Assembly: GCF_013122565.1 (NCBI RefSeq)
Contig: NZ_CP053258.1
From: Escherichia coli
GTDB lineage: Bacteria > Pseudomonadota > Gammaproteobacteria > Enterobacterales > Enterobacteriaceae
Direction: 5' to 3' (one strand)
DNA length: 64,000 bases
This document shows positions 34,147 to 59,346 of the stretch, piece after piece (the first letter of the stretch is position 1; every line of letters starts with the position of its first letter). The notes under the pieces were generated by a model, which was given only the letters and a program-made list of their open reading frames with translations, had not been told where the DNA came from and ran no database searches. Position numbers and translations under genes: made by a program.

Positions 34147-37017
34147 TTATATTTTTTCCAGCGCAGTGAGTATTTTCTCCGGTGTGAAATGCCATTCGCG
34201 TAACCAGATGCCGCAGGCATCGTGAATTGCGGTAGCAATCGCCGGAGCTGCGCCATTTACACCGATTTCCGAGATCGATTTCGCCCCGAACGGGCCGACT
34301 TTATCGTCGCTCGGCACCAGCACAGCGCGGAAATCACGCGGAATGTCACCAATTTTCGGTGCGCCGTAACTGCGTAAATCACGCGTTAACGGGTGACCTT
34401 CGGCGTCATAAATGATCTCTTCGCTCATACTGTGGCCGATAGCACGCAGGGTGGCACCGTAGATTTGTCCCAACGCTAACTCTGGATTGACCGGTGTACC
34501 GCAGTCCAGCAAGGCGTAGAATTTATCCAGGCTGATTTCACCCGTACGCGTGTTGACGGCAACTTCAGCGAAGTTTGCGCCATACGGGAAAGCGAAATCA
34601 GGCGTGATATAACTGCCAGTTCCCACCAGTGAACCAAAGCCGGTGCCGGTTTCGCCTTTATGGGCAATATCCCCGAAACTAACTTCGCCTTTCTTGCCGC
34701 GCACGACGCCCGGCGTTGCTAGTTGAACATCTGCCACTGGCTCACCCAACATTTGCGCGCCGTGGAACAGAATTTTCTCCCGCAGATTTTCCGCTGCTAA
34801 ACGCGCCGCGTTACCCGAGAAGCAAGTACCGGACGAGGCATATGCGCCTTTATCAAACAACGCATGATCGGTATCACCGGAGATAACATGCACGTCCTGT
34901 GGTGGGCAGTGCAGCACTTCTGCTGCCAGTTTCGTCACCACAGTATCCAGACCAGTACCAATATCCGCACCGCCAGAATGAACAATAAAGGTGCCGTCCG
35001 ATTCCAGTTTGATCATGCAGTTAGCCTGATCGATATCCGGGATACCCGATTTCTGCATGATAATGGCGACGCCGCGACCGATGTGCCAGTCACCATTTTG
35101 CGGTTTCGGTGACGACCATTGGATCATCTCGCGACCCTGACGCAGGATCTCTTCCAGTGCGCAGCTGGCGGCGGAAGGAACGGAGGTTGGCGCTTTACCT
35201 TCACCGATTGCACCGAGAATTTTCAGCTCTTGCCCTTCGTGTACCCGGTTACGTTCGATAATTTCCAGTTGGTCGATCTGTAACTGTTCAGCCAGTTCCG
35301 CTAATGCCATGGTGATAGCGAAGTTACCTTTCGGTGCGCCATAACCCTGATAAGCACCATTTGGGCAAATGTTGCTGTAGTAGGTGGTGACCTGGAAATC
35401 GACGTTATCGCACGGATATAACGGCAGCGACAGCGCCGGTCCGTTACATGGTACGGTGAGTGAGTGGTTGCCGTAAGGGCCAGTGTTGGCGCGGAAATCC
35501 ATCTTCACTGCCGTCAGGCGACCATCTTTTTTCGCTCCCAGTTTGACGGTGACTTTCGCGACGTGACGAGAGGTGTTAGCAATAAACTCTTCTTCACGGG
35601 TGTAGCGGAACAGTACCGGACGCCCGGTCACGCAGGTTGCCCAGGCGCACACTTCTTCCAGCAGGATGTCCTGTTTGGAACCAAAACCGCCGCCAACTCG
35701 CTCTTTAATGACATGAACTTTATGCTGTTTCATGCCCACGAGGCGCGCGACCTGGCGGCGTAAGTGCCATGGTACCTGGGTGGAGGCGTGGATAACCAGA
35801 CGATCGCCGTCCATACGAGTAAAGCAGATATGTGTTTCAGTCGGGCACTGCTGCGCCTGCGTTGAGTTATAGGTTCGCTCAATGATCACATCGGCATCGG
35901 CAAAGCCTTTGTCCATATCGCCAATATGACCATGAATACTGGCGGCGATATTTTTGCGTGGACGAGAACCGATCGGGAAGTTGATGATCATATGCTCGCC
36001 GCGCTGGGCTGCATGGCTGTTATCGTCTTCCAGAGTATCTGGCGCACCAGCAACATACACCACCGGTTCATCGTGCACGACAGGCGCATCTTCCGCCATT
36101 GCTTCGTCGATCGACATTACCGGCTTAAGCACTTCATATTCAACGTCGATGAGCTTCAGTGCTTCGAGCGCAATTTCTTCACTTTCAGCGACCACCGCAG
36201 CAACGCGATCGCCGACGTGACGCATTTTCTTGCCGAACATACGGCGGTCAAGCGGTGACGGTTCCGGTGCGCTCTGCCCCCCCGGGGTATAGTAGATATC
36301 CGGGCAATTCAGGTGAGTAATAACGTGAACGACGCCCGGTAAGGCTTCAGCTTTGCTGACATCCAGATGAGTAATCAGTGCGTGAGCGTGTGGGCTACGT
36401 AACATTTTAATGACGCAGGCGTCAGCCGTTACGCGGTCTTCAACATAGCAGGGTTTCGCCTGCACCATTTTCGCGGCATCAGTTTTAGGATAATGCTTGC
36501 CAATGACGTCAAGGTCGTCACGGAAAGTCGGAGCGATATCAATGGTGGCCTGCGGATTATTTTTACGTGCAACCGCCAGTTCAATGACCTGATAGTATTG
36601 TTGCCAGCCTGCATCGCGGCTGAACAAACCAGAAAGCGCGTCGTCGATCTCTTCGCGGGTAGGTGCGGCGATACGATCGAGAAGATCGGTGATAATCAGA
36701 GCTGCAGCTGGATCGTTATAACCAGACTGCACCACGCCAACATCAACCATTGCCTGTTGAACCAGACTTAACTCGTTCCATTTGCCCAGAGATTCTGCGG
36801 TACGAATATCTGCCTTCTCTAACTGTGCGGCAATAAGCAAGGACGCGTTAACGATATTACCTTTAAAGATAATTGCGTCAGAACCGGCAAACCCAAAGCC
36901 ATCATCACTGTTGCGTACAGAGTGCATTCCCATGTTAAACAACAGATTCTGCACGTTTTCGCCTGGATTAACGGTTAGCTCCTGAGGCGCGCCATTTAAA
37001 GTAAAGTGGATGATCAT
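34147..37017 (-). CDS. xdhD: molybdopterin-dependent hydroxylase, fused [2Fe-2S] and Mo-binding subunit (xanthine-dehydrogenase family)
   Basis: 956 aa with N-terminal 2Fe-2S ferredoxin-like region followed by aldehyde oxidase / xanthine dehydrogenase Mo-binding domains. Confidence 0.9.
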   Translation of the reverse strand: MIIHFTLNGAPQELTVNPGENVQNLLFNMGMHSVRNSDDGFGFAGSDAIIFKGNIVNASLLIAAQLEKADIRTAESLGKWNELSLVQQAMVDVGVVQSGYNDPAAALIITDLLDRIAAPTREEIDDALSGLFSRDAGWQQYYQVIELAVARKNNPQATIDIAPTFRDDLDVIGKHYPKTDAAKMVQAKPCYVEDRVTADACVIKMLRSPHAHALITHLDVSKAEALPGVVHVITHLNCPDIYYTPGGQSAPEPSPLDRRMFGKKMRHVGDRVAAVVAESEEIALEALKLIDVEYEVLKPVMSIDEAMAEDAPVVHDEPVVYVAGAPDTLEDDNSHAAQRGEHMIINFPIGSRPRKNIAASIHGHIGDMDKGFADADVIIERTYNSTQAQQCPTETHICFTRMDGDRLVIHASTQVPWHLRRQVARLVGMKQHKVHVIKERVGGGFGSKQDILLEEVCAWATCVTGRPVLFRYTREEEFIANTSRHVAKVTVKLGAKKDGRLTAVKMDFRANTGPYGNHSLTVPCNGPALSLPLYPCDNVDFQVTTYYSNICPNGAYQGYGAPKGNFAITMALAELAEQLQIDQLEIIERNRVHEGQELKILGAIGEGKAPTSVPSAASCALEEILRQGREMIQWSSPKPQNGDWHIGRGVAIIMQKSGIPDIDQANCMIKLESDGTFIVHSGGADIGTGLDTVVTKLAAEVLHCPPQDVHVISGDTDHALFDKGAYASSGTCFSGNAARLAAENLREKILFHGAQMLGEPVADVQLATPGVVRGKKGEVSFGDIAHKGETGTGFGSLVGTGSYITPDFAFPYGANFAEVAVNTRTGEISLDKFYALLDCGTPVNPELALGQIYGATLRAIGHSMSEEIIYDAEGHPLTRDLRSYGAPKIGDIPRDFRAVLVPSDDKVGPFGAKSISEIGVNGAAPAIATAIHDACGIWLREWHFTPEKILTALEKI

Positions 37018-37793
37018 ACGGCTTCCTCCCCAGCCTGTTGGCAGTCGGCATACAGGTCGGCTACCAGAACTCCCGTGATATAGCGTTTATAGGCCACGCT
37101 GCCCCGCAAATCTTCCTGCGGGAAAATGGCGTTGGCGACAGCCTGTTCAAGTGCATTGCCTTCCAGATTTTGTTTTTCGACATCGTGCAGACGCAGTGCT
37201 TTACTGGCGACGCCATCCAGCGCAATTCGCATACCGTCGTGGTCTGTCATTGCAACGGCAGCCGTCACGACGGTTAAACCTGCCTGAGAACGGCTAATTT
37301 TGCGGGTCGCACAGGTACGATACGGATCTTTAATGATAATTTCAGTTAGCAGGCGATCGCATGGGCAGGCCAGGTAGTCCTCGATTGACAGCGTTTCGCC
37401 GTTGCCAAAAACCAGTTCAGCATCCAGTGCCAGCAGGACGGGAAGCAGCACCGACTCTTCCTGCCGGGCAGCGATTTCACCACCAATGGTCGACTGATTA
37501 CGAACATGGCGTGAGTAAACAAAACCGAGAGCTTCACGCAGTGCTGCAGGAATAAATCGCGCATCACGCAGTGGCTGCAAGCGAGACATTGCACCAATCC
37601 GCAGTGCACCGTTATCCCAGTCAACCCAGTCCAGTTCCAGATCCTGTAAGGAAATGGCAATCTTTTTATCGGTACGGGTTGGTGTAGCGTTGAGTTTGCT
37701 GCCCCCGGCGAACCAGACGGCTTCATCCTGGTAGCGGCGCTTCAGTTCCAGCGCCTGTTCGACAGAGTCGGGCCTGAAAAATTGTTCAATCAT
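37014..37793 (-). CDS. ygfM: FAD-binding subunit of a molybdo-hydroxylase (CoxM/XdhB-like)
   Basis: 259 aa; stop overlaps the xdhD start. Confidence 0.85.
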   Translation of the reverse strand: MIEQFFRPDSVEQALELKRRYQDEAVWFAGGSKLNATPTRTDKKIAISLQDLELDWVDWDNGALRIGAMSRLQPLRDARFIPAALREALGFVYSRHVRNQSTIGGEIAARQEESVLLPVLLALDAELVFGNGETLSIEDYLACPCDRLLTEIIIKDPYRTCATRKISRSQAGLTVVTAAVAMTDHDGMRIALDGVASKALRLHDVEKQNLEGNALEQAVANAIFPQEDLRGSVAYKRYITGVLVADLYADCQQAGEEAV

Positions 37794-37843
37794 CTTCTTT
37801 CCTTATTTAACCCTCTTCCCTGCGGGAAGAGGGCATCTGTCAT

Positions 37844-39172
37844 TTATGCCAGCGCATCCATCCGACGCCACATACTGGCAGCGGCTTTTCTGGCTTGTGC
37901 ATAAATGGAATCGCAATCGAAGTTAAACTGACGGTCTTCATAGACCATCACACCATTGACCATCACGCTGTGAACGCTGCCTGAGCCCATACCGAAAGCG
38001 ATATGCCCGGCGATATTGTCTGCCAGCAGCGGCGTCGGCGAGTTGTAATCGCAAATGGTTAAATCAGCTTTGTAACCGGCTTCCAGAAGCCCAAATTTCG
38101 CGCCAAAGTTGCGACTCATCAGTTCGTTACCGTTAGTCAGGGCTTTGGCAAAACTGTCAGGCCACAGCGGACCACCCGCATCGCGATGTTTAAAGAAGGC
38201 AAATTTCATCTCTTCAAACATGTCCGAACCAATGCCGTCCGTTCCCAACGCCAGATTGCGGATGTCGCTAAGGTGATGGTTGTAGCCGACATGGTTGTTC
38301 ATGTTTGAACGGGCGTTATGCACCAGGAACGCATCGCGCTGATTGAGTAGGGCGATGTCATCTTTCGACAAGTACAGCCCATGAGCGACCAGCGTTTTGC
38401 TGTCGATGAGATCGAATTGCGCCAGTCGTGCCAGCAGGTCTTTGCCGTACCTGTGGTGACTGTAGGAAACGTCGTAAAGGTCTTCCGCAGCGTGAATATG
38501 CAAACCACGGCCTGTGGCTTTCACGGCTTCACGCAGCATCTCCAGACCGGCATCTGGCACGGTAAACGGTGCGTGAGCGCCGATATGTGCTTCCACCAGA
38601 TACGGCTCGGTTGCTGCTTTCTTCGCCTCATCAATCTGACGGGCGAAGCGGATGTTTTCTTCTACACCTTCCTGCAACTCTTTGATGCCGTTGTTACGGT
38701 CAGTAGTTTCAAAACAGGTCATCGCGCGCAGGCCAACTTTTAAAAATGCGTCGCGCAATGTGGAGAGCGACCCGCCGATATACGCCGGAGAGGCATGGTG
38801 ATCGATAACCGATGTACATCCGCTCTTAATCGCTTCCAGGGAGCAAATCAGCCCGCTGTAATAGAGCGACTCTTCATCAAGGGCGCGATCGAGCCGCCAC
38901 CAGAGATTTTTCAGCGTTGAGATGAAATCCGGGCAGGGGGCGATGTTTGCCATAATTCCGCGGGAAAGCCCCGAGTAAAAATGGTTGTGCGAGCAGACAA
39001 TTCCCGGCATCACAATCCGACCATGCATCTCTTTGTAGCTGGCATCGGGGTAGCGTTGCGTCAGGGCATCTCCGATAGCGACAATCACATCATTTTCGAT
39101 AGCGATATCAACGCCTTCCTGCACTTTCGCCGGGTGTAACTGCACTGCGGTGACATTCTTCAGAATCAACAT
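37844..39172 (-). CDS. ssnA: amidohydrolase-superfamily protein (chlorohydrolase / deaminase-like)
   Basis: 442 aa with metal-binding HxH near the N-terminus (SHNHFYSG). Confidence 0.85.
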   Translation of the reverse strand: MLILKNVTAVQLHPAKVQEGVDIAIENDVIVAIGDALTQRYPDASYKEMHGRIVMPGIVCSHNHFYSGLSRGIMANIAPCPDFISTLKNLWWRLDRALDEESLYYSGLICSLEAIKSGCTSVIDHHASPAYIGGSLSTLRDAFLKVGLRAMTCFETTDRNNGIKELQEGVEENIRFARQIDEAKKAATEPYLVEAHIGAHAPFTVPDAGLEMLREAVKATGRGLHIHAAEDLYDVSYSHHRYGKDLLARLAQFDLIDSKTLVAHGLYLSKDDIALLNQRDAFLVHNARSNMNNHVGYNHHLSDIRNLALGTDGIGSDMFEEMKFAFFKHRDAGGPLWPDSFAKALTNGNELMSRNFGAKFGLLEAGYKADLTICDYNSPTPLLADNIAGHIAFGMGSGSVHSVMVNGVMVYEDRQFNFDCDSIYAQARKAAASMWRRMDALA

Positions 39173-39174
39173 GA

Positions 39175-42100
39175 TTACACCTCCACGCGGCCCAGCAGAT
39201 AATGATGATGCTGGTGGACATGGCTAATAATGCGGCACATATCGTTCAGCTCATGTGGTACGTTGTTGAACTGACCTTCGCTGTCGATGTTTAACACCCA
39301 GCTTTGGTTATTCAGACGCACTCGTACCCGGCAATCTTCCACAAGGAAGCCTGGGTTGCTGCTGTTATCAAAGTCTTGCGCCAGGCTGAAGACGGTGATT
39401 TTGTCTTTGTATGGTTTACCGTTCCACGGACAGAACTGAGCGCAGTTGCCGCATTCGTTACAGTAAGCGTCGAGGTGCAGCGTCTGGAATCTATTCTGGA
39501 AGCCTGGGACCGCAATGGAGACGTTGGCGCGGTTCGGGCAGACATCCACACACTTGCTGCAAACGTAGTTACATTCGAGGCAGCGAGCGGCTTCCTGGGC
39601 GACAAACGCGTCACGATCGTCACTGTTCACCAGCGTGATAGAGATATCGCCTTTACGTTGATAGATTTCCGCCGGATTGACGTTGTTCCAGTATTTATCG
39701 TTCTGGTGGGAACGGATATTTTCCCGACTAAGGATGGCATCGGTCGCCCGACGCGCGGTTCCGACAGCAGCGACAATGGAGGATGGTCCGCGCTGTACGT
39801 CGCCGATCATAAAGACGTCAGTCAGACGAGTTTCGCCATTATGGTCGACGTCTGGCCAGCCGTTTTTGTCCAGCGGCACGCCCATCGCATTCAGGGCTTC
39901 AGTATCCTGCTGTTCACCAATGGCGGTGATCAGGCTGTCTACATGCAGTGTTACTGTTTCGTTGGTTTCAACCGGACGACGACGACCTTTCTCATCCGGT
40001 TCGCCAAGCGACATAACGCGCAAGGTTAAGGTGCCATCAGCATCGAAACGTTCCGGATTGTTCAGGAAACGGAACTCCACGCCGTCGTGCAACGCTTCTT
40101 CATACTCTTCGCGCCATGCGGGCATCTCTTGCAGTGAACGACGGTAAACGATCGTTGCTTTTTCTACGCCTGGAACGCGTAACGCCGCACGAGCGCAGTC
40201 CATTGCGGTGTTACCCGCCCCGACAACGACCACATGTTTGCCCAGCTTGAGCGCTGTACCCTTGTTGTATTCACGCAGGAAGGGGAGTGATTTCCAGACA
40301 TTTTGGTTGTCGCCCGCCAGTTTCACACCGCTATTTTTATCAGTGCCGGTGGCAATCAGAACATAGTGGAAGCCCTGATTTTTTAACTGTTCAACGGTCA
40401 AATCGGGTGAGCAGCCATACTCAAATTTCACGCCGTGAGCGGCAACAAAATCGATATCGTGCTGAATTAACTCTGCAGGAATACGGAACTGAGGGATGAT
40501 ATTTTTCACCACGCCGCCCGCATTGGCTTCGCGTTCAAACAGCGTAACCGGATGGCCCGCTCTGGCAAGGAAGTAACCTGCAGCCAGACCCGCCGGACCT
40601 GCACCAATCACGGCAACCGGATGGCGTGAACCAGAACCGGCTGGTTTGTGCCAACGTTGCTTATATTCATCCCAACCTTTTTCCAGCGCGACTTTTTTCA
40701 GTTCGCGGATATTCAGTGCACTGTCGTAATCCAGGCGGGTACAGTTGTATTGGCACTGGTGATCGCAAATATGACCGGTAATGGCGGGCAGGGCGTTGCG
40801 TTGGTAGATAAGTTCCAGCGCGTCGGCATAGCGGTGTTCGCCAAGCAGACGGATGTATTCCGGAATATCTTGCTTGATAGCGCAGGCAGTAACACAGGGG
40901 GCAACGTAGCAGTCGGTCAGCGGCAGGTCTTCTGCCACTTCAATACGCTCTTCTGGCTTCCAGTGTTTCTGGGTGTATTCCATGGTTAGCGCGTCTGCTG
41001 CCAGTCTGTTCAGTCGTTCGACGTCAACATGGTCAAGTCCCCAGGCGTCGGAGCCTTCCAGCTCGCGCATGCAGGCACTTAAGCGCAGATAGCCACCAGG
41101 TTTCAGCAGATCGGTTGCCATAGTAATAGGGCGAATACCAGTATCAAAAATATCGCGGATAGTCAGCTGACTGGCACCACCGGAATAAGAAATGGGCAGT
41201 TTGCCGTCAAAGGCGCGAGAGAGAACTGCTGCAACATTGATGGAGAGCGGGAACAGCGCACGGCCTGACATATACATCTCTTCACCGGGCAGTGCGCCTT
41301 TATTGTTGATGGTGCCGAGAGTGTTAGTCAGTTTTACGCCAAAGCCGAGTGATTTTTCTTTTGCCAGTGCCATCAGGCGTTCCAGCATTTCCAGCGCTTG
41401 CGTCAGCTTGAGGTCGTGATCAAATGACTCTTCTTTTAAGCCTATGTAACCGAAACCGCAGACATCGAGGATCTCACGAACACGCGCGTACCCCAGTAAG
41501 GTCGGGTTAAGTTTCACAAAGGTGTTGAGCCCTTTTTCTTCCAGCATGTAGCGGCAAATGGCTTCGATTTCATGCGGAGGACAGCCGTGCATGGTGGAGA
41601 GGGTGACGCCATGCACCATACTGGTGGGGATGCGAGCGGGTAAGGCTTGCAAGCTTTCGCGTTTTTCCTGCAATCCGTGGCGAGCTAAAAATGCGTCATC
41701 CTGGAGTAATTTATTCAGCGTATCGCGATATTGAGCGAATTTCGGATGGTCAGATGCGTCCATCATATTGTCGATGAACTGTTGCATCGGCGGTTGCTTA
41801 ATACCTTCGAGGTTGTAACCGACGCTCATATTAAAGATGAACGATTTACCGGAATCAGAAGGCTGGAACATCGCTTCGAGAAGGTGCAGGGCAAACCAGG
41901 CTTTGAGGTATTCATCCCAGGCTTTAAGCAGGGTAAATTCGGTAGACCATTCGGTGTTAAAACACTCGTCTTCGGCATCGATACAGGGCTTTTCCAGCTC
42001 CAGGCGGTCAAGAATTTGGACGGTTTTTAGTTCGATGAAGCGTCCGCCAGTCAGCCAGGAAGTGACAATATTTTGCGCGAGCTGCGTGTGCGGGCCAGCG

Positions 42101-42273
42101 GCAGGGCCGACGGGAGTGGCACAGGTTTCACCGAAGACGCTAACAGTTTTACCTTTTACGGGTGAGTAAAACTGTTGCTCGGGAATACCAAAGATTGAGC
42201 GTTGTTGTTGGTATTCATCAAATATGCGCGTCAAAAGTTCCTCAAACGGAATGGGACGCATAATATCCCCCAT
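39175..42273 (-). CDS. ygfK: large Fe-S flavoprotein oxidoreductase (GltD-like domain plus ferredoxin-like C-terminus)
   Basis: 1032 aa; dinucleotide-binding [21 protein letters not shown] and VVVVGAGNTAMDC; C-terminal Cys clusters. Confidence 0.9.
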   Translation of the reverse strand: MGDIMRPIPFEELLTRIFDEYQQQRSIFGIPEQQFYSPVKGKTVSVFGETCATPVGPAAGPHTQLAQNIVTSWLTGGRFIELKTVQILDRLELEKPCIDAEDECFNTEWSTEFTLLKAWDEYLKAWFALHLLEAMFQPSDSGKSFIFNMSVGYNLEGIKQPPMQQFIDNMMDASDHPKFAQYRDTLNKLLQDDAFLARHGLQEKRESLQALPARIPTSMVHGVTLSTMHGCPPHEIEAICRYMLEEKGLNTFVKLNPTLLGYARVREILDVCGFGYIGLKEESFDHDLKLTQALEMLERLMALAKEKSLGFGVKLTNTLGTINNKGALPGEEMYMSGRALFPLSINVAAVLSRAFDGKLPISYSGGASQLTIRDIFDTGIRPITMATDLLKPGGYLRLSACMRELEGSDAWGLDHVDVERLNRLAADALTMEYTQKHWKPEERIEVAEDLPLTDCYVAPCVTACAIKQDIPEYIRLLGEHRYADALELIYQRNALPAITGHICDHQCQYNCTRLDYDSALNIRELKKVALEKGWDEYKQRWHKPAGSGSRHPVAVIGAGPAGLAAGYFLARAGHPVTLFEREANAGGVVKNIIPQFRIPAELIQHDIDFVAAHGVKFEYGCSPDLTVEQLKNQGFHYVLIATGTDKNSGVKLAGDNQNVWKSLPFLREYNKGTALKLGKHVVVVGAGNTAMDCARAALRVPGVEKATIVYRRSLQEMPAWREEYEEALHDGVEFRFLNNPERFDADGTLTLRVMSLGEPDEKGRRRPVETNETVTLHVDSLITAIGEQQDTEALNAMGVPLDKNGWPDVDHNGETRLTDVFMIGDVQRGPSSIVAAVGTARRATDAILSRENIRSHQNDKYWNNVNPAEIYQRKGDISITLVNSDDRDAFVAQEAARCLECNYVCSKCVDVCPNRANVSIAVPGFQNRFQTLHLDAYCNECGNCAQFCPWNGKPYKDKITVFSLAQDFDNSSNPGFLVEDCRVRVRLNNQSWVLNIDSEGQFNNVPHELNDMCRIISHVHQHHHYLLGRVEV

Positions 42274-42594
42274 AACCCTCTCCTTAGCTTATACAGATAT
42301 CATTGAGTGACCGGTGTTGAGAAATCCGGTGGTTTAGGGGGATAGAGCAACAATCGCACCACTCTTGCCAGGTTTGGCGGGAAATATAAAAAAATGTGAG
42401 GCGGCTCGAAACTTAAGGGCTTTTTGTGAATGAACTCACAGGTGCCAAATGAGAATTAAAATCACTCCTGAAAATTATTATTGCCAGCCCATTTATCACT
42501 TTTTCTCTTTTCTCAAAATTAGTGATTCCTTATCATTATGATAAAGAGTGCTGGAGGGGTTAAATATTTGAACGCAATCGTTTAACTACGTTTT

Positions 42595-43173
42595 CTAAAT
42601 TTCAGTATACCTTTTCTTCGCTGTAATAAAGTCGTCCGGAGTATCAATATCTAAAATTATTTCTGCATTTTCTATTTCGACGGAATAATGATCTCCCATA
42701 AGGAATGCCTGACGCATATTGGTGACATTGGGTCGCTGGAATGCCTGCATCAAGCATGGTTTTGACACTAAAATCGGATGGCCGGGGATGCCATTATGAA
42801 GTGGCAGTATTGCGCCATCATTTCGTAACGACCAGATTTTTCTAAAAATATCAATGGTGAGGGTTGGCATGTCACCGTGGGTGAGAAAACAATGTTCTGT
42901 TTGCACTGCGGGTACTGCGGCCTTGACTGATGTTAGTAAACCCTGGGCATAATCTGGGTTGTGAATAATAGTGATATTACTCTGGTTCGCATAACGTTCG
43001 TGCAGTTCATTACCACGATAGCCGGTGACTAAAATAATTCGGCTACAAAACTGCAACGCATTTTTGATACTTGTATCAAGAATTGTTCCCTGTTGCCAGG
43101 GTAACATCATTTTCCATTGCCCCATTCTTGATGATAATCCGGCAGCGGTAATTATACAGTCGATGGCTGACAT
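42595..43173 (-). CDS. mocA: molybdenum cofactor cytidylyltransferase (MobA-like)
   Basis: 192 aa MSAIDCIITAAGLSSRMGQWKMMLPW, nucleotidyltransferase motif. Confidence 0.85.
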   Translation of the reverse strand: MSAIDCIITAAGLSSRMGQWKMMLPWQQGTILDTSIKNALQFCSRIILVTGYRGNELHERYANQSNITIIHNPDYAQGLLTSVKAAVPAVQTEHCFLTHGDMPTLTIDIFRKIWSLRNDGAILPLHNGIPGHPILVSKPCLMQAFQRPNVTNMRQAFLMGDHYSVEIENAEIILDIDTPDDFITAKKRYTEI

Positions 43174-43275
43174 AGTGGTTCCATTATTTATAGGGGCTAA
43201 TAACGCCTGATAATTGCGTTACTTCCTGATGGATTAAGTTGGGGGTAATTTATCCCAGAGAGGTCATAAAGACTC

Positions 43276-44046
43276 GTGAAAAGTATAGTTGACCCATCGG
43301 CATTATTCATTGATTTAGGTGCACAGAAACGTCCCACTGTGATTTCTGTTGTTGGTGCTGGGGGGAAAACCAGCTTGCTTTTTTGGCTGGCAGAACGGCT
43401 CCAGACTAGCGGCAGGCGTGTGTTAATCACGACGACGACACATATGTTTATGCCAACGTCACACTGGCCCGTGGTTTTCTGTCGTGATCCCGCCATGCTT
43501 CCTCATGCGTCTCTTACATCCCCCATTTCATTTTGTTTTCACAGCTGGAAAGCGAACCAGGGAAAAGTGCAGGGATTTACGCCAGAAGCGATTGATGCAC
43601 TGGTGCAACGACCAGAGTGTGACGTAATTCTCATTGAAGCAGATGGCTCGCGTGGAATGCCGTTAAAAGCCCCTGATGAGCACGAACCTTGCATACCCAA
43701 AAGCAGTTGCTGCGTGATTGCTGTGATGGGAGGACATATTTTGGGCGCGAAAGTGAGCACAGAAAATGTCCATCGCTGGTCGCAGTTTGCTGATATTACC
43801 GGGTTAACACCTGATGCAACCTTGCAACTGAGCGATCTCGTTGCGCTGGTTCGCCACCCTCAGGGGGCGTTTAAAAACGTACCGCAAGGTTGTCGGCGAG
43901 TCTGGTTCATTAACCGTTTTTCTCAATGTGAGAATGCGATTGCGCAAAGCGAGCTCCTTCAACCGCTGCAACAACACGACGTAGAGGCAATCTGGCTGGG
44001 CGATATACAAGAACATCCTGCAATCGCGCGCAGATTTGTGAATTAG
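43276..44046 (+). CDS. yqeC: YqeC-family accessory protein of selenium-dependent molybdenum hydroxylases (P-loop)
   Basis: 256 aa with Walker A-like VVGAGGKTS; paired with yqeB. Confidence 0.85.
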   Translation: MKSIVDPSALFIDLGAQKRPTVISVVGAGGKTSLLFWLAERLQTSGRRVLITTTTHMFMPTSHWPVVFCRDPAMLPHASLTSPISFCFHSWKANQGKVQGFTPEAIDALVQRPECDVILIEADGSRGMPLKAPDEHEPCIPKSSCCVIAVMGGHILGAKVSTENVHRWSQFADITGLTPDATLQLSDLVALVRHPQGAFKNVPQGCRRVWFINRFSQCENAIAQSELLQPLQQHDVEAIWLGDIQEHPAIARRFVN

Positions 44047-44093
44047 CGGCCCGGGTATTCCGGGTTACTGAAAGGATATCCATTGAGGTTGGT

Positions 44094-45719
44094 ATGAATA
44101 TTTTCACAGAGGCTGCAAAACTCGAAGAGCAAAATTGTCCGTTTGCGATGGCGCAAATTGTTGATAGCCGAGGCTCGACTCCCCGCCATTCTGCACAAAT
44201 GTTAGTGCGCGCCGATGGCTCTATCGTCGGTACAATTGGTGGCGGAATGGTTGAGCGGAAGGTGATTGAAGAGTCGCTTCAGGCATTGCAGGAGCGTAAG
44301 CCGCGATTATTCCATGGACGTATGGCTCGTAACGGTGCGGATGCTGTCGGGTCAGATTGTGGAGGTGCAATGTCAGTATTTATCAGCGTCCATGGTATGC
44401 GTCCACGTCTGGTGTTGATTGGCGCGGGGCATGTCAACCGGGCGATAGCCCAGAGTGCGGCGCTATTAGGATTTGATATTGCCGTTGCCGATATTTATCG
44501 CGAAAGCCTCAATCCTGAACTATTCCCTCCATCAACCACGCTTCTCCATGCTGAGTCGTTTGGTGCGGCAGTGGAAGCACTGGATATTCGCCCTGATAAT
44601 TTTGTCCTGATTGCCACGAATAATCAGGATCGTGAAGCCCTCGACAAACTCATTGAACAGCCCATTGCATGGTTGGGGTTGCTGGCAAGTCGTCGCAAGG
44701 TTCAGCTTTTCCTGCGTCAATTGCGTGAGAAAGGCGTGGCTGAAGAACATATTGCCCGTTTACATGCGCCCGTTGGTTACAACATAGGTGCGGAAACGCC
44801 GCAGGAGATCGCCATCAGCGTGCTGGCAGAAATATTACAGGTGAAAAATAACGCGCCGGGTGGGCTGATGATGAAACCTTCTCATCCTTCCGGACACCAG
44901 CTGGTGGTGATTCGCGGTGCGGGAGATATCGCCAGTGGTGTGGCGCTACGTCTGTATCATGCGGGTTTTAAAGTGATCATGCTGGAAGTGGAAAAACCGA
45001 CAGTGATTCGTTGTACCGTGGCGTTTGCCCAGGCCGTGTTCGATGGCGAAACGACGGTCGAAGGCGTCACTGCCCGCCTGGCAACCAGCTCTGCGGAAGC
45101 GATGAAACTTACCGAACGCGGATTCATCCCTGTGATGGTAGATCCCGCCTGTTCATTGCTTGATGAACTGAAACCGCTTTGCGTGGTGGACGCTATTCTG
45201 GCGAAACAGAATTTGGGAACGCGGGCAGATATGGCACCAGTAACAATCGCGCTTGGGCCGGGCTTTACTGCAGGGAAGGATTGTCATGCGGTAATTGAAA
45301 CAAATCGCGGGCACTGGCTCGGTCAGGTGATTTACTCTGGTTGTGCGCAGGAGAATACCGGTGTTCCTGGCAATATTATGGGGCATACCACCCGACGGGT
45401 GATCCGTGCTCCTGCTGCAGGCATTATGCGATCCAACGTGAAATTAGGCGATCTGGTGAAAGAGGGCGATGTGATTGCCTGGATTGGTGAGCATGAAATT
45501 AAAGCACCGTTGACGGGAATGGTGCGTGGCTTGTTGAACGACGGCCTGGCAGTGGTTGGTGGTTTTAAAATTGGTGATATTGATCCTCGTGGTGAAACCG
45601 CTGATTTCACCAGCGTTTCTGATAAAGCCCGGGCGATTGGCGGCGGCGTACTTGAGGCGTTAATGATGTTGATGCATCAGGGCGTTAAAGCGACGAAAGA
45701 AGTGCTGGAAGTGGCTTAA
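44094..45719 (+). CDS. yqeB: YqeB-family accessory protein of selenium-dependent molybdenum hydroxylases (XdhC/CoxI-like)
   Basis: 541 aa; XdhC-like Rossmann region. Confidence 0.85.
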   Translation: MNIFTEAAKLEEQNCPFAMAQIVDSRGSTPRHSAQMLVRADGSIVGTIGGGMVERKVIEESLQALQERKPRLFHGRMARNGADAVGSDCGGAMSVFISVHGMRPRLVLIGAGHVNRAIAQSAALLGFDIAVADIYRESLNPELFPPSTTLLHAESFGAAVEALDIRPDNFVLIATNNQDREALDKLIEQPIAWLGLLASRRKVQLFLRQLREKGVAEEHIARLHAPVGYNIGAETPQEIAISVLAEILQVKNNAPGGLMMKPSHPSGHQLVVIRGAGDIASGVALRLYHAGFKVIMLEVEKPTVIRCTVAFAQAVFDGETTVEGVTARLATSSAEAMKLTERGFIPVMVDPACSLLDELKPLCVVDAILAKQNLGTRADMAPVTIALGPGFTAGKDCHAVIETNRGHWLGQVIYSGCAQENTGVPGNIMGHTTRRVIRAPAAGIMRSNVKLGDLVKEGDVIAWIGEHEIKAPLTGMVRGLLNDGLAVVGGFKIGDIDPRGETADFTSVSDKARAIGGGVLEALMMLMHQGVKATKEVLEVA

Positions 45720-45770
45720 ATGAAAATGGCCGGATGGTATTACCCACCCGGCCTGAGACTGATGACAAAC

Positions 45771-45877
45771 GCCGAATTGCCTGATGGACTACGCTTATCA
45801 GGCCTACAAGTGCATTGCAATCTATTGAATTTACGATGTTTTGTAGGCCGGATAAGGCGCTCGCGCCGCATCCGGCA
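45771..45877. repeat. REP / BIME cluster
   Basis: two inverted REP palindromes (gcctgatggactacgcttatcaggcctac and gtaggccggataaggcgctcgcgccgcatccggca) between convergent yqeB and yqeA. Confidence 0.6.
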
Positions 45878-45938
45878 TCAACAAAGCGCGTTTTGTTAAC
45901 AATCTTTAACCGGATGGCGTATCCATCCGGCCTTTAAA

Positions 45939-46871
45939 TTACTGACAAATCACCGTTCCGGTTTTGCCTTCAATCCCTTCTTTCGCTTTGCTCAACACGG
46001 TAATCAGTGCTTCACGACCTGCGCGAGAGCGAGCAAACGAGGCGGCAGCTTCCACTTTAGGCAGCATAGAACCTTTCGCAAAATGACCTTCTTCGATAAA
46101 GCGTTCAGCATCACTTAATGACAGGCGATCGAGCCACTGTTCATTCTCTTTACCGAAGTTAATGGCCACTTTTTCTACCGCAGTCAGAATGATCAGCATA
46201 TCGGCATCAATCATTTCTGCTAAACGGGCGCTGGCCCAGTCTTTATCGATAACCGCACTGGCACCACGCAGGTGGTTACCTTCACGAATAACAGGGATAC
46301 CACCACCGCCAACGGTAATCACTACCTGGCCTGCTTCTACCAGCGCTTTTACCGTCTCTTTTTCAATAATATCAACCGGTTTTGGTGAAGCAACAACACG
46401 ACGATAGCCGCGACCAGCATCTTCTTTCAGGGTGTAGCCCTGTTTTGTCAGTTGCTCTGCTTCTTGCTCGGTAAAGAACGAACCGATCGGCTTGGTCGGG
46501 TTGAGGAATGCCGGGTCGTTAGCGTCGACTTCGACCTGAGTAACCAGCGTTGCTACAGGTTTATTAATGCCCCGAGAAAGCAGTTCTTCTCTTAAAGCGT
46601 TTTGTAGATCGTAACCAATATAACCCTGGCTTAATGCAACACAGACAGACATCGGCAGCATTGGCGAGTGTGCTTCAGTTTTTGCGGCAGCTTCAAAGGC
46701 CTGGTTAATCATGCCCACCTGTGGCCCGTTACCGTGAGTGACGATGACCTCATGTCCCTGGGCAATTAAATCAACAATTGCCTGAGAAGTAATTTTTACC
46801 GCTTTCATTTGCCCGGCCAGGTCATCGCCCAGCGCATTCCCGCCCAGGGCGAGAACAATTTTCTTACTCAT
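45939..46871 (-). CDS. yqeA: carbamate kinase-like protein
   Basis: 310 aa amino-acid-kinase family, MSKKIVLALGGNALG. Confidence 0.9.
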   Translation of the reverse strand: MSKKIVLALGGNALGDDLAGQMKAVKITSQAIVDLIAQGHEVIVTHGNGPQVGMINQAFEAAAKTEAHSPMLPMSVCVALSQGYIGYDLQNALREELLSRGINKPVATLVTQVEVDANDPAFLNPTKPIGSFFTEQEAEQLTKQGYTLKEDAGRGYRRVVASPKPVDIIEKETVKALVEAGQVVITVGGGGIPVIREGNHLRGASAVIDKDWASARLAEMIDADMLIILTAVEKVAINFGKENEQWLDRLSLSDAERFIEEGHFAKGSMLPKVEAAASFARSRAGREALITVLSKAKEGIEGKTGTVICQ

Positions 46872-52069: not shown

Positions 52070-52544
52070 AAAGTCCCGGTAGTGGAATGACAGGCAAAGT
52101 GGTTTATTTCACTGTGACTTGCCAAAGTGATTGGTGTTTTCACAGCTATACTTGGGACTAACAATAAGTGTGCCAGAATTATCCACGGGGCTGCAAAAGA
52201 CTAATTTGACGGATAATGTGTGGGGTTGATCACAAATTGATGCCAGCTTCCGGTTGTTTGTAAAATACGAAAACGTTTGGCTTTTTTTATCGCGTTATTT
52301 ATTTGCTGCTAAGTATCAGAAATAAGATAAAGGGGCAGGCTATCCCTCGTCAGTTTGATAAACTCACCGCCGTAATTCTCATATTGATATAGAAATGTGA
52401 TATCTCTTCCATAATTTCATTAGAAAGTGATAAAAATCTTATGTTTTTATCAAAGCCAATTTCGCCTGAGTTAATATCATCATGATCTGTGAACCATCAA
52501 CGTCTTCAATGATCGACTTTTAAGTAAGTCTGGAAGGTAAAGCT

Positions 52545-54323
52545 ATGGAGCTTGCTACTACGCAGTCAGTATTGATGCAAATTCAACCGACAATTCAGCG
52601 TTTTGCCAGAATGCTTGCCAGCGTTTTGCAGCTTGAGGTTGAGATCGTTGATGAAAACTTGTGTCGCGTCGCCGGAACTGGCGCGTATGGGAAGTTTCTT
52701 GGTCGCCAGTTGAGCGGCAACTCACGCCTGCTCCGCCACGTCCTGGAAACGAAAACTGAAAAAGTTGTGACACAGTCTCGCTTCGATCCCCTTTGTGAAG
52801 GTTGCGATAGTAAAGAAAATTGCCGCGAAAAAGCATTTCTGGGTACGCCTGTCATTTTACAGGATCGTTGTGTTGGGGTGATAAGTTTGATTGCCGTTAC
52901 CCACGAGCAACAAGAGCATATTAGTGATAATTTACGCGAATTTTCTGATTACGTTCGCCATATATCCACCATTTTTGTTTCGAAACTTCTGGAGGATCAG
53001 GGACCAGGAGATAACATCAGTAAAATATTCGCGACCATGATCGATAATATGGATCAGGGCGTATTAGTTATTGATGACGATAATCGGATTCAGTTTGTTA
53101 ATCAGACAGCCTTAAAAACACTCGGTGTTGTGCAAAATAATATTATTGGGAAACCTATCCGTTTCAGACCATTAACATTTGAGAGTAATTTTACCCATGG
53201 ACATATGCAGCATATTGTTTCGTGGGACGATAAAAGTGAGTTAATCATTGGTCAATTGCATAACATTCAGGGCCGACAATTATTTTTAATGGCGTTTCAC
53301 CAATCGCATACCAGTTTTTCTGTAGCAAATGCACCTGATGAACCGCATATTGAACAATTGGTTGGCGAGTGCCGTGTTATGCGGCAATTAAAACGACTCA
53401 TTAGCCGTATTGCACCCAGCCCATCCAGCGTTATGGTGGTTGGTGAAAGCGGCACGGGTAAAGAAGTCGTCGCCCGTGCAATCCATAAGTTGAGCGGAAG
53501 ACGGAATAAACCCTTTATTGCTATCAACTGTGCCGCGATTCCGGAGCAGCTTCTGGAGAGCGAACTGTTCGGTTATGTTAAAGGCGCATTTACTGGCGCT
53601 TCTGCCAACGGTAAAACAGGGTTGATTCAGGCGGCGAATACGGGCACGCTGTTTCTCGATGAAATAGGTGATATGCCATTAATGTTGCAGGCTAAATTAC
53701 TGCGCGCTATTGAGGCACGTGAAATTCTGCCGATTGGTGCCAGTAGCCCAATACAAGTCGACATTCGCATCATTTCTGCAACTAACCAGAATTTGGCCCA
53801 GTTCATTGCAGAAGGTAAATTCCGCGAAGATCTCTTCTACCGACTTAATGTTATCCCGATAACTCTGCCACCGCTGCGTGAACGTCAGGAAGATATTGAA
53901 CTACTGGTGCATTATTTTTTACATCTGCATACCCGTCGTCTGGGATCGGTTTATCCGGGCATTGCTCCCGATGTCGTCGAAATATTGCGTAAGCATCGTT
54001 GGCCCGGAAACCTGCGCGAGTTAAGCAATTTGATGGAATATCTGGTTAACGTGGTTCCTTCAGGTGAAGTTATCGACAGCACGCTATTGCCGCCAAATCT
54101 GCTGAATAATGGCACAACGGAGCAAAGTGATGTAACAGAGGTCAACGAGGCGCACCTGGCACTCGATGATGCGGGCGGCACGGCGCTGGAGGAGATGGAA
54201 AAGCAAATGATCCGCGAGGCGCTTTCACGTCATAACAGCAAGAAGCAAGTTGCTGATGAACTGGGCATCGGCATTGCTACGCTCTATCGCAAGATTAAGA
54301 AATATGAGTTGTTAAACACATAA
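52545..54323 (+). CDS. ygeV: sigma54-dependent transcriptional activator (bacterial enhancer-binding protein)
   Basis: 592 aa; AAA+ core with Walker A GESGTGKE and the sigma54-contact GAFTGA motif; C-terminal HTH; N-terminal sensory region. Confidence 0.9.
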   Translation: MELATTQSVLMQIQPTIQRFARMLASVLQLEVEIVDENLCRVAGTGAYGKFLGRQLSGNSRLLRHVLETKTEKVVTQSRFDPLCEGCDSKENCREKAFLGTPVILQDRCVGVISLIAVTHEQQEHISDNLREFSDYVRHISTIFVSKLLEDQGPGDNISKIFATMIDNMDQGVLVIDDDNRIQFVNQTALKTLGVVQNNIIGKPIRFRPLTFESNFTHGHMQHIVSWDDKSELIIGQLHNIQGRQLFLMAFHQSHTSFSVANAPDEPHIEQLVGECRVMRQLKRLISRIAPSPSSVMVVGESGTGKEVVARAIHKLSGRRNKPFIAINCAAIPEQLLESELFGYVKGAFTGASANGKTGLIQAANTGTLFLDEIGDMPLMLQAKLLRAIEAREILPIGASSPIQVDIRIISATNQNLAQFIAEGKFREDLFYRLNVIPITLPPLRERQEDIELLVHYFLHLHTRRLGSVYPGIAPDVVEILRKHRWPGNLRELSNLMEYLVNVVPSGEVIDSTLLPPNLLNNGTTEQSDVTEVNEAHLALDDAGGTALEEMEKQMIREALSRHNSKKQVADELGIGIATLYRKIKKYELLNT

Positions 54324-54362: not shown

Positions 54363-54842
54363 TTACTTCGTTTTCTCGCAATCCAGAACCGTATTTACAA
54401 TCATCTGATACCCCGTGCAGCGACAAAGATTTCCCGCCAGTCCGCGACGAATTTCCGTAATGGTTAATGGCTTCTCGCGTGGTTTCGCCAGCATTGCCGT
54501 GGTAGCCATAATCAGGCCAGGCGTACAAAACCCGCACTGCACTGCGCCGGATTTCGCATAAGCCTGCTGAACATGAGAAAGTTTTCCGCCTTTCGCTTCA
54601 CCTTCCAGCGTGCGGATCTCTTTTCCTTCAGCCCAGGCGGCAAGGTATAAGCAACTGTCTATTGCTGTGCCGTCGACCAGCACCGTACAGGCACCACATT
54701 CACCCACGCAGCACCCTTGTTTGACACTTAGCAGTCCTTGTTCGCGGAGTAATTCCGAGAGTGGCGTGCCTGGTGCGGCGTGAAGCTGAAAAGGCATCCC
54801 GTTAATGGTGCATTCGATGGTAATTGTTTCGCTGTGATTCAT
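54363..54842 (-). CDS. xdhC: xanthine dehydrogenase [2Fe-2S] subunit
   Basis: 159 aa with plant-type and second 2Fe-2S Cys motifs ([22 protein letters not shown]). Confidence 0.9.
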
Positions 54843-55717
54843 TGCAATTTTCCCCCCGCCGCGGCGACGGCTTCGCTAATCACTTTTTTGGTCATCGTCT
54901 GGATGAGATGCAGACGAAACTCTTTACTGGCCCGCCATGAAGAACGCGGGGCGACATCTTGCAGGACAGATTCGCTGATAGCTTCCAGCGTTTGCAGTTT
55001 TAATGGCGCATTTTGTGCAGTCTGTTCGGCATGTTGGCAGCGAATCGGCGTTGGCGCGGCAACACCAAATGCCAGACGTAATTCGCTGAAATTGCCGTTA
55101 TCCAGTCGGCAATGTGCGGCGCAGCCAATCGTTGAAATATCCATTGCGTCGCGCATGGCATATTTAAAATGCGCGCTGCCCGCGTGTTCTTTCGGCTGGG
55201 GCGGAAAATGAAAGGCGACAAGGATTTCGTCATGCTCAAGAGACACTTTGCCCGGCCCAGTGTGAAAGCCATTAATCGGGACGAAACGAACACCGCGTGG
55301 GGAGTGGATCTCCAGCTTTGCGTCATAAATTAGCGTTGGCGTGGCAGAATCTGCGCTGGTGGCACCGTTGCAAATATTTCCACCGTAGGTAGCGACGTTA
55401 CGGATCTGCGGTCCGGCAATGGATGAGGCCGCAGCACATAACGCCGGGAGATGACGTTGAGTTACAGGATCTTCAATGAGCTGGGTAAATGTCGTTGCAG
55501 AGCCGATACGTAGCGAGCCATCTTCCGCCAGCGTAATTCCCCGCAATTCCGCCAGATTATGAATATCAACAATATGGCGATAACGGTCATTGTGATGGTG
55601 GAGCTGAATCAGTACGTCAGTGCCACCGGCGAGCAGTTTGGCCTGCGGGTTGTCAGCCAGCAGGTTGATGGCATCGGCAAGGGTTGCTGCGCGATGGTAA
55701 GAAGCAAAATCAAACAT
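54839..55717 (-). CDS. xdhB: xanthine dehydrogenase FAD-binding subunit
   Basis: 292 aa CO-dehydrogenase flavoprotein fold; overlaps the xdhC start. Confidence 0.9.
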
Positions 55718-55727
55718 GATGTTATCC

Positions 55728-57986: not shown

Positions 57987-58080
57987 GCATGATTCACCTG
58001 TAGCGGTTGCTTCCCGCGCTTCCATAGAAATCCCCTCGATTTGAACATTTGGTTCTTATGGCAAAGATTTAGTCTAAGCA

Positions 58081-58097
58081 GGCAAGATTTACGCCAG
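58081..58097 (-). promoter_or_regulatory. candidate sigma54 -24/-12 promoter upstream of xdhABC
   Basis: minus-strand sequence cTGGCgtaaatcTTGCc with GG-N10-GC spacing, about 95 nt upstream of the xdhA ATG; sigma54 activator gene ygeV is adjacent. Confidence 0.35.
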
Positions 58098-59272: not shown

Positions 59273-59346
59273 GCGGGCGTAGTTCAATGGTAGAACGAGA
59301 GCTTCCCAAGCTCTATACGAGGGTTCGATTCCCTTCGCCCGCTCCA
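59273..59346 (+). tRNA. glyU: tRNA-Gly (anticodon CCC)
   Basis: 74 nt cloverleaf GCGGGCGUAGUUCAAUGGUAGAACGAGAGCUUCCCAAGCUCUAUACGAGGGUUCGAUUCCCUUCGCCCGCUCCA; encoded CCA. Confidence 0.95.

Follow-up and report, generated by a model that had tools for sequence, protein, structure and literature searches.

Genes mocA, yqeC and yqeB of Escherichia coli: a probable molybdenum cofactor maturation module with a selenium step

A labile selenium ligand on molybdenum constitutes a third biological route for selenium, the biochemistry of which is still undefined. Xanthine-oxidase-family enzymes with labile selenium that is not selenocysteine (Sec) include the nicotinate dehydrogenase, xanthine dehydrogenase and purine hydroxylase of Eubacterium barkeri and Clostridium purinolyticum, and the DOPDH of C. 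sporogenes, counterpart of E. coli XdhD, which was inactive once purified from a selD mutant (10.1101/2025.04.24.650524). Two gene families, yqeB and yqeC (HP1 and HP2), were read as markers of this trait by Haft & Self 2008 and Zhang 2008, and the reading is by now part of RefSeq product names; the trait signature requires the yqeB and yqeC pair together (PMC5029168), and the YqeB family has been reported only from selD-positive genomes. In C. difficile, where yqeB and yqeC are unlinked, a yqeB deletion resembles a selD deletion on xanthine and urate, a yqeC deletion has no obvious phenotype, so that the role of YqeC may be minor, and the double mutant is partially complemented by yqeB alone (PMC11448449). 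For the E. coli XdhD, which works with the FAD subunit YgfM and NADH, reduction of urate to 2,8-dioxopurine was demonstrated in 2025 (10.1101/2025.05.19.654654); YgfK reduces the 2,8-dioxopurine, and the entire pathway has been reconstituted as urate degradation (10.1101/2025.04.24.650524, 10.1101/2025.05.19.654654). This client pathway, by which gut bacteria degrade urate anaerobically, bears on hyperuricaemia and gout.

The DNA analysed here, referred to as the window, is a 64,000-nucleotide stretch of an E. coli genome (contig NZ_CP053258.1), for which the best match among complete RefSeq E. coli genomes does not exceed 98.8% identity. Open reading frames for mocA, yqeC and yqeB were found exactly where the initial annotation had placed them, and the names it gave them hold, each protein scoring above the cut-off of its own NCBIfam equivalog model (MocA 213.7 bits against TIGR03310, cut-off 186.45; YqeC 241.9 bits against TIGR03172, cut-off 73; YqeB 416.6 bits against TIGR03309, cut-off 220) and RefSeq annotating the same genes in the closest genome. 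By pairwise comparison all three are intact, equal in length to K-12 b2877, b2876 and b2875, and 98.1-99.2% identical to them in DNA (mocA 98.1%), with one amino-acid difference in YqeB and four each in YqeC and MocA; K-12 also shares the gene order, the intergenic regions and the sigma-54 sites. The pair yqeB/yqeC had been described as conserved and divergent, which is not the arrangement here: both lie in tandem on the plus strand, yqeB starting 47 bp downstream of yqeC, and the divergent pair is instead mocA/yqeC, 102 bp apart. The flanks are as first described, mocA being followed by ygfK, ssnA, ygfM and xdhD on the minus strand (Table 1). These are ordinary, already annotated E. coli genes, and nothing about them is new, because their selenium link was published in 2008.

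Table 1. Features of the mocA-yqeC-yqeB locus and its surroundings (window positions)
Feature	Position	Strand	Description
xdhD	34147-37017	-	956 aa
ygfK-ssnA-ygfM-xdhD	34147..42273	-	Candidate client XdhD-YgfM (urate to 2,8-dioxopurine) and next pathway steps; ORFs, annotation, 10.1101/2025.05.19.654654
ygfK	39175-42273	-	1032 aa
Sigma-54 promoter upstream of ygfK (GTGGTGCGATTGTTGCT)	42346..42362	-	Identical to K-12 ChIP-seq site OS31 (PMC4591121)
mocA (ygfJ, b2877 orthologue)	42595..43173	-	Predicted CTP:molybdopterin cytidylyltransferase, 192 aa; TIGR03310 and K-12 comparison
mocA-yqeC divergent intergenic region	43174..43275	.	102 bp; 1 of 102 bases differs from K-12
yqeC (b2876 orthologue)	43276..44046	+	GTG start, 256 aa; SIMIBI-class P-loop NTPase, accessory marker of selenium-cofactor trait
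Sigma-54 promoter within yqeC, driving yqeB (TGAGCACGAACCTTGCA)	43677..43693	+	Identical to K-12 validated site
yqeB (b2875 orthologue)	44094..45719	+	541 aa, two-domain protein
YqeB N-terminal half	44127..44834	+	XdhC-type molybdenum cofactor chaperone domains: XdhC_CoxI and XdhC_C Rossmann
YqeB C-terminal half	44904..45671	+	TIGR03309 domain, the actual selenium-trait marker; Rossmann-like start, then beta-rich part
yqeB-arcC spacer	45720..45938	.	REP/BIME-like inverted repeats, terminator-like hairpins
ygeV	52545..54323	+	Sigma-54 enhancer-binding protein encoded within island; annotation
xdhCBA	54363..58025	-	Xanthine dehydrogenase, likely second client of cofactor module; ORFs and annotation
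Sigma-54 site by xdhCBA	58081-58097	.	Identity to mapped K-12 site

The genes for xdhD, xdhA (765 aa) and ygfK are uninterrupted and of annotated length, and so, as had been claimed, no hydroxylase frame contains an in-frame UGA; a search of the window against Rfam gave no match to a SECIS-type element. A xanthine-oxidase-family hydroxylase without a Sec codon thus occurs together with yqeB and yqeC, the gene complement of the SDMH trait, and the xdhD and xdhA genes lie 5.6 kb and 10 kb from the yqeB locus, which gives the hydroxylase locus that accompanies TIGR03309 along with the XdhC fusion. The selD gene lies outside the window but at the species level is found in 5425 of 5426 complete E. 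coli genomes and is a core E. coli gene, so that the lack of an obvious selenocysteine partner, as first reported, came from viewing one window in isolation. E. coli is furthermore equipped with the Sec machinery and with three formate dehydrogenases that contain Sec. Apart from this point and the divergent pair, the core of the original interpretation stood: the labile-selenium molybdenum hydroxylase reading of yqeB and yqeC agrees with the literature and with curated models, and the view that any selenium would be used as a non-Sec ligand, by a poorly defined mechanism, agrees with the same studies (PMC2276186, PMC2432076, PMC5029168, PMC11448449).

The description of YqeB as XdhC-like proved correct for one half of the protein. 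Pfam XdhC_CoxI and XdhC_C match residues 12-74 and 106-247, whereas the match to TIGR03309, the selenium-marker part, covers residues 271-526, a C-terminal half for which neither a Pfam family nor a sequence relative in the PDB was found; in the AlphaFold2 model (pLDDT 92.9) residues 254-267 form a disordered linker. The TIGR03309 domain occurs in 3254 clusters at 50% identity, and its invariant positions carry Arg, Lys, Asp, Glu, Gly and Pro, none being Cys; R306, K371, E402, R405, R435, R478, K492 and D495 of YqeB are among them. A proposal that this domain is a duplicated XdhC domain was unsupported, since hhalign aligned only the first 60 Rossmann columns, with a probability of 43%. The reading preferred here, at a probability of roughly 80%, is that mocA-yqeC-yqeB form a cofactor-maturation module of the E. 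coli anaerobic purine/urate catabolic island that includes a selenium step; what it prepares for the neighbouring urate- and xanthine-degrading enzymes is the molybdenum cofactor, probably with selenium.

The alternative that survives best, though it seems unlikely, holds that the E. coli module is a sulfur-type XdhC system only, in which YqeB equips XdhD and XdhA with ordinary sulfurated MCD and selenium is uninvolved. YqeB has a genuine XdhC domain as its N-terminal half, and the Moco literature sees the protein simply as a shared chaperone, proposed to be of the XdhC type and common to XdhABC and XdhD (PMC2997495); the searchable literature yielded no selenium measurement in E. coli XdhD or XdhA, and 75Se labelling of E. 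coli in LB made visible only Sec proteins, of 80-110 kDa (PMC2432076). Against a sulfur-only system stand the 416 bits of the C-terminal half on the selenium-marker model, the restriction of the reported YqeB family to selD-positive genomes, the almost universal retention of selD in E. coli, the inactivity without SelD of the C. sporogenes enzyme that carries out the same reaction (10.1101/2025.04.24.650524), and the coincidence of yqeB and selD phenotypes in C. difficile (PMC11448449). With regard to the LB labelling, the island is poorly expressed in that medium and labile selenium would disappear on such gels.

The experiments suggested with the initial annotation have largely been done already in clostridia, in C. 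difficile for dependence on selD and yqeB and in C. sporogenes for the SelD dependence of the XdhD counterpart, and the pathway of E. coli itself was worked out in 2025. A search of the literature for YqeB and YqeC biochemistry gave nothing later than the C. difficile genetics of 2024 and the pathway preprints of 2025, and in the searchable literature no E. coli yqeB, yqeC or selD mutants assayed for XdhD or XdhA activity were found. The window adds nothing beyond databases and papers; it is a reminder that the decisive experiments are unreported for E. coli, where they are easiest.

Gene neighbourhoods were compared in the best 80 loci by similarity to E. coli YqeB among species-representative genomes, 48 of these loci being from Collinsella. 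In 68 of the 80, spanning Gammaproteobacteria, Spirochaetes, Bacteroidetes, Firmicutes and Actinobacteria, yqeC is adjacent to yqeB, in more than one orientation: the two are in tandem in 24 of the 32 loci outside Collinsella and divergent in 44 of the 48 within it, and one further non-Collinsella locus is divergent too, with yqeC about 2.2 kb off on the opposite strand. Urate-pathway or xdh genes are commonly close by, and selD lies within 10 kb of yqeB in six of the 32 non-Collinsella loci. The YqeB C-domain was also followed through 150 family representatives, one per 50%-identity cluster; it stands alone in half of them (75) and is fused to XdhC, in either order, in 28, to MocA in 12 and to YqeC in 10 (P0135, for example, is a YqeB C-domain-YqeC fusion), and one protein of the survey (P0127) is a triple fusion of YqeC, MocA and the YqeB C-domain. 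Split neighbouring genes for XdhC and the YqeB C-domain also occur. It is far less probable than a sulfur-only system that the cluster serves selenate and selenite reduction and detoxification, with yqeB and yqeC treating selenium as substrate and not as cofactor. That notion persists in the RefSeq name "putative selenate reductase subunit YgfK" and in the Haft & Self term "purine catabolism and selenate reduction region"; it is opposed by the reduction of 2,8-dioxopurine by YgfK within reconstituted urate degradation, and by the partners of the YqeB C-domain, which are cofactor-synthesis proteins (MocA, XdhC, ModE) and include no selenium-oxyanion reductases or transporters.

YqeC, described at the outset as a P-loop protein, has intact Walker A (GAGGKT) and Walker B (EADG) motifs that are conserved across phyla, matches Pfam PF19842 with an E-value of 2e-42, and has the SIMIBI NTPase fold. 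The HEPC sequence, invariant in enterobacterial YqeC, was considered as a metal- or selenium-binding motif in the manner of UreG, HypB or CooC, and was rejected because the surveyed loci outside Enterobacterales (Endozoicomonas, Spirochaetes, Bacteroidetes, Firmicutes, Collinsella) all have Val, Arg or Gln in place of Cys139; in the gammaproteobacterial sequences aligned this Cys is invariant only in Enterobacterales and Aeromonas. Judged from sequence, the adjacency, the natural fusions and the NTPase fold of YqeC agree that mocA, yqeC and yqeB would work together. The least probable alternative of all, that yqeC is functionally unrelated to yqeB and its neighbour through common island ancestry only, can point to the silent yqeC deletion and unlinked genes of C. 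difficile (PMC11448449) and to the separate yqeB promoter within E. coli yqeC (PMC4591121), but has against it an adjacency that recurs from Gammaproteobacteria to Actinobacteria in more than one orientation, the YqeC fusions including the triple one, and the partial complementation of the C. difficile double mutant by yqeB alone (PMC11448449).

Sigma-54 promoters were called by exact identity to experimentally mapped K-12 sites, as a general search of the window for sigma-54 motifs gave 42 matches where 42.9 were expected and is no evidence alone. The site inside yqeC overlies codons D-E-H-E-P-C-I, and its mutation in K-12 leaves YqeB protein undetectable (PMC4591121). Within the mocA-yqeC intergenic region sigma-70-like matches in a motif scan were weak and their count not above chance, and K-12 mapping places no sigma-54 site there (PMC4591121); sigma-70 and terminator scans across the region likewise did not exceed shuffled expectation. 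Multi-copy BLAST matches of the yqeB-arcC spacer arise from its REP/BIME-like repeats. With a sigma-54 promoter of its own, yqeB would be tied to the ygfK, ygeW, xdhA and ygfT sigma-54 promoters of the island, which also encodes ygeV, a gene that appears in the Haft & Self listing.

A scheme for the selenium-containing module may be proposed as follows. The K-12 MocA was shown by Neumann 2009, as cited in PMC2997495, to add CMP to Mo-molybdopterin, giving the MCD cofactor for xanthine-oxidase-family enzymes, and by its sequence the MocA of the window is predicted to be the same CTP:molybdopterin cytidylyltransferase, producing the MCD form. The XdhC-like half of YqeB would hold MCD and deliver it to apo-XdhD and apo-XdhA; in this scheme neither enzyme has an XdhC gene of its own. 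The TIGR03309 domain would carry out the selenium-specific step, replacing the terminal Mo ligand with selenium from selenophosphate made by SelD, so that the product would be a labile Mo=Se centre and not selenocysteine. As its invariant charged residues are Arg, Lys, Asp and Glu and never Cys, the domain is expected to bind an anionic donor or the dinucleotide cofactor, and would carry no selenium on cysteine. YqeC would give nucleotide-dependent help in the selenium step or in insertion, perhaps being partly dispensable, and the natural fusion proteins suggest a complex of YqeC, MocA and YqeB. The most specific form of the proposal is tentative, and somewhat more likely wrong than right: E. 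coli XdhD and/or XdhA would bear Mo=Se, and the cysteine-free TIGR03309 domain, complexed with MocA and the NTPase YqeC, would install it directly from selenophosphate on MCD bound to the fused XdhC domain, bypassing any persulfide-like or perselenide cysteine relay. If true, E. coli would become a tractable model of the least understood biological selenium route.

As SIMIBI cofactor-assembly NTPases, UreG, HypB and CooC have fold and Walker A and B motifs in common with YqeC, which likewise accompanies metal-cofactor maturation; MobB, by analogy, is presumably another of this class. The N-terminal half of YqeB has the XdhC_CoxI and XdhC_C domains of the system-specific Moco chaperones XdhC of Rhodobacter capsulatus and PaoD of E. 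coli, and is expected, as they do, to bind Moco or MCD, to allow exchange of the terminal ligand and to place the cofactor in the apo-enzyme (PMC2997495); it differs from them in the additional 270-residue TIGR03309 domain and in lying outside the operon of its client enzymes, and has GGGMVE in place of the SGGC(V/L)E of the solved XdhC-like proteins 2we7 and 3on5. [quoted passage not shown] E. faecalis has a stand-alone YqeB domain with selD inside the cluster, and Sec and selenouridine systems are reported to be absent from it (PMC2276186), whereas the E. coli YqeB carries an XdhC fusion, selD lies some 1.2 Mb off by K-12 coordinates, and the Sec trait is present. A labile, cyanolysable selenium needed for activity and dependent on SelD has been shown or implied for clostridial hydroxylases; selenium has been demonstrated in the E. 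barkeri and C. purinolyticum enzymes and SelD dependence in DOPDH. A selenium centre in the E. coli enzymes would be by analogy to these, the reaction of DOPDH being identical to that of E. coli XdhD.

The initial annotation had grouped mocA, yqeC and yqeB as markers of a selenium trait, and its boundaries agree exactly with three open reading frames, each of which matches an NCBIfam equivalog model: MocA to TIGR03310 (213.7 bits, cut-off 186), YqeC to TIGR03172 (241.9 bits, cut-off 73) and YqeB to TIGR03309 (416.6 bits, cut-off 220). The genes are equal in length to K-12 b2877, b2876 and b2875, with DNA identity of 98.1-99.2% and four amino acid changes in MocA, four in YqeC and one in YqeB. 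It had also been proposed that yqeB and yqeC form a divergent pair; here they are in tandem on the plus strand with a gap of 47 bp, and it is mocA that is transcribed divergently from yqeC, with 102 bp between them. A 99-aa ORF on the minus strand (43197-43496), antisense to the yqeC start and the mocA-yqeC spacer, is without annotation in reference genomes and is probably spurious.

Coordinates of genes, sigma-54 sites and RNA matches in the window
Feature	Position	Strand	Remarks
mocA	42595-43173	-	192-aa ORF; RefSeq: molybdenum cofactor cytidylyltransferase
yqeC	43276-44046	+	256-aa ORF, GTG start; RefSeq: selenium cofactor biosynthesis protein YqeC
yqeB	44094-45719	+	541-aa ORF; RefSeq: selenium-dependent molybdenum cofactor biosynthesis protein YqeB
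sigma-54 site, ygfT	27339-27355	+	identical to K-12 site
sigma-54 site, ygfK	42346-42362	-	identical to K-12 site
sigma-54 site inside yqeC	43677-43693	+	identical to K-12 site
sigma-54 site, ygeW	52160-52176	-	identical to K-12 site
sigma-54 site, xdhA	58081-58097	-	identical to K-12 site
two Sib antitoxin RNAs, 6S RNA (ssrS), a tRNA	2000-2150, 2393-2543, 3192-3375, 59273-59343		Rfam

The window is chromosomal DNA of E. coli. Of 5426 complete E. coli genomes, 5156 align with 80% or more of the 4.5-kb segment that surrounds the three genes (42000-46500), with a top identity of 98.8%, and positions 1-25000 reach at most 98.4% identity to complete RefSeq E. coli genomes; the source strain thus belongs to a lineage for which that collection has no very closely related complete genome. 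The 4.5-kb query matches a median of five places per genome because the yqeB-arcC spacer (45720-45938) carries REP/BIME-like inverted repeats, together with two terminator-like hairpins. Rfam matches are limited to the tabulated RNAs. The counterpart of the tRNA in the closest annotated genome, allowing for an offset of about 22 kb, is a tRNA-Gly gene, after which come a glycoside hydrolase gene, a GhoT/OrtT-family toxin gene and genes for type III secretion; nothing in this set is unusual.

As had been noted, the minus strand continues downstream of mocA with ygfK, ssnA, ygfM and xdhD (34147-42273), and the other side holds arcC/yqeA, hyuA, ygeY, ygeX, ygeW, ygeV and xdhCBA. The xdhD (956 aa), xdhA (765 aa) and ygfK (1032 aa) ORFs are unbroken at annotated length and therefore free of in-frame UGA, in agreement with the earlier claim for the hydroxylases, and the Rfam search of the window found no SECIS-type element. 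The suggestion that the genome has no obvious selenocysteine partner is beyond what a single window can decide, and all but one of the 5426 complete E. coli genomes (5425) carry selD. Selenocysteine machinery and selenocysteine-containing formate dehydrogenases are established in E. coli.

ChIP-seq in K-12 mapped five sigma-54 sites in the island (PMC4591121), and all five are present verbatim in the window. A generic sigma-54 motif scan gave results not above chance, so the case for these sites is their exact match to the ones validated in K-12. The site inside yqeC is needed in K-12 for yqeB mRNA and detectable YqeB protein (PMC4591121), so that yqeB is expressed with the catabolic genes and partly independently of yqeC; K-12 data for this promoter point to induction under nitrogen limitation. 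The other four sites, together with the sigma-54 activator gene ygeV (52545-54323), make the island as a whole look like a single sigma-54 regulon. The yqeC-internal promoter overlies the codons for D-E-H-E-P-C-I. Five further yqeC genes from Enterobacterales, whose proteins are about 50% identical, keep its core, GCAY-GAACC-TTGCA, along with the synonymous positions of GAA, CCT and TGC, and the HEPC cysteine (Cys139) is not kept across phyla, being absent outside Enterobacterales and Aeromonas; the promoter, in addition to the protein, may thus constrain this DNA.

The predicted structure of YqeB (pLDDT 92.9) has two domains, with residues 254-267 forming a disordered linker between them. The C-terminal TIGR03309 domain opens with a Rossmann-like GAGD motif and, in profile comparison with the XdhC-like N-terminal half, aligns over the first 60 columns only (43% probability). 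Its invariant residues are G277, P302, R306, K371, G388, P389, E402, R405, G406, P425, R435, G443, G475, R478, G479, K492, D495 and K511, with no cysteine among them. In the XdhC domain, residues 48-55 (44235-44258) read GGGMVE against SGGC(V/L)E in the solved XdhC-like structures 2we7 and 3on5, and in the alignment that column is likewise free of cysteine in every XdhC-type domain fused to the YqeB domain. YqeC keeps across phyla its Walker A, TTT and Walker B (ExDG) motifs, K131, P138 and N213.

At the 50% identity level, 3254 protein clusters contain the TIGR03309 domain. In the 150 best representatives it stands alone in 75, and is joined to an XdhC-like domain, in either order, in 28, to a MocA-like domain in 12 and to YqeC in 10. 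One 777-aa protein (P0127) combines YqeC, MocA and the YqeB C-domain, and another (P0158) adds a ModE-like N-terminal domain. Natural fusions to MocA, YqeC or both are found among the related proteins P0127, P0133, P0135, P0153, P0158 and P0182; XdhC and the YqeB C-domain also occur as split genes 4 bp apart. Species-representative genomes were scanned with the YqeB alignment, and the best 80 loci, a sample skewed to relatives of E. coli YqeB, were searched by tblastn with the window proteins and K-12 SelD. In the 32 non-Collinsella loci (Enterobacterales, Endozoicomonas, Spirochaetes, Bacteroidetes, Firmicutes, Chloroflexi), yqeC is directly upstream of yqeB on the same strand in 23, directly downstream on that strand in one, and about 2.2 kb off on the opposite strand in one more; selD lies within 10 kb in six. 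In Collinsella, 44 of 48 loci have yqeC just upstream of yqeB in divergent orientation, and YqeB has its domains reversed, TIGR03309 first. Across the 80 loci, mocA divergent from yqeC is confined to Gammaproteobacteria, and urate-pathway genes or xdhABC are frequent neighbours. Fusions and conserved adjacency argue strongly that MocA, YqeC and YqeB share one process on the cytidine dinucleotide form of the molybdenum cofactor (MCD).

We therefore read the module, with a probability of roughly 0.8, as an MCD maturation system for XdhD and XdhA in which selenium is involved. The K-12 MocA orthologue is a cytidylyltransferase shown to form MCD (Neumann & Leimkühler 2010, PMC2997495). In YqeB, the XdhC half would hold MCD for XdhD and XdhA, neither of which has its own XdhC gene, and the TIGR03309 half would carry out a selenium-specific ligand exchange with selenium activated by SelD; YqeC would assist in a nucleotide-dependent step. 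The charged, cysteine-free conserved surface of the TIGR03309 half suggests, from residue conservation, binding of an anionic donor or dinucleotide cofactor, not a perselenide carrier. Use of the module for sulfur only in E. coli is unlikely. Our literature search found no report of selenium measurements on E. coli XdhD or XdhA, of assays of these activities in E. coli mutants of yqeB, yqeC or selD, or of a defined biochemical role for YqeB or YqeC. Haft & Self (2008) named E. coli YqeB, YqeC and YgfJ with a "23-gene purine catabolism and selenate reduction region" (PMC2276186); the biochemistry published in 2025 and the fusion proteins make a selenate-reductase reading of the cluster very unlikely, and likewise one of mere chance neighbours.

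A role in selenium use has already been published for these very genes and is now part of their RefSeq product names; apart from gene orientation the initial annotation was correct, and its interpretation standard. Haft & Self built TIGR03309, TIGR03172 and TIGR03310 from orphan-selD genomes (PMC2276186), Zhang et al. (2008) listed the E. coli genes as HP1 (XdhC-fused), HP2 and a MobA-related protein and mentioned fusions of these families with MobA-related and XdhC proteins (PMC2432076), and Peng et al. (2016) took SelD, YqeB and YqeC jointly as the trait signature (PMC5029168). Tests like those proposed initially have largely been done already in clostridia (PMC11448449; 10.1101/2025.04.24.650524). 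In C. difficile, where yqeB and yqeC are unlinked, a yqeC deletion has no obvious phenotype, and yqeB alone only partially rescues the double mutant (PMC11448449). The C. difficile yqeB deletion leaves urate unused and growth on xanthine much poorer, is complemented by a yqeB plasmid, and closely resembles selD mutants in its growth on both purines (PMC11448449); 2,8-dioxopurine dehydrogenase purified from a C. sporogenes selD mutant is intact but inactive (10.1101/2025.04.24.650524).
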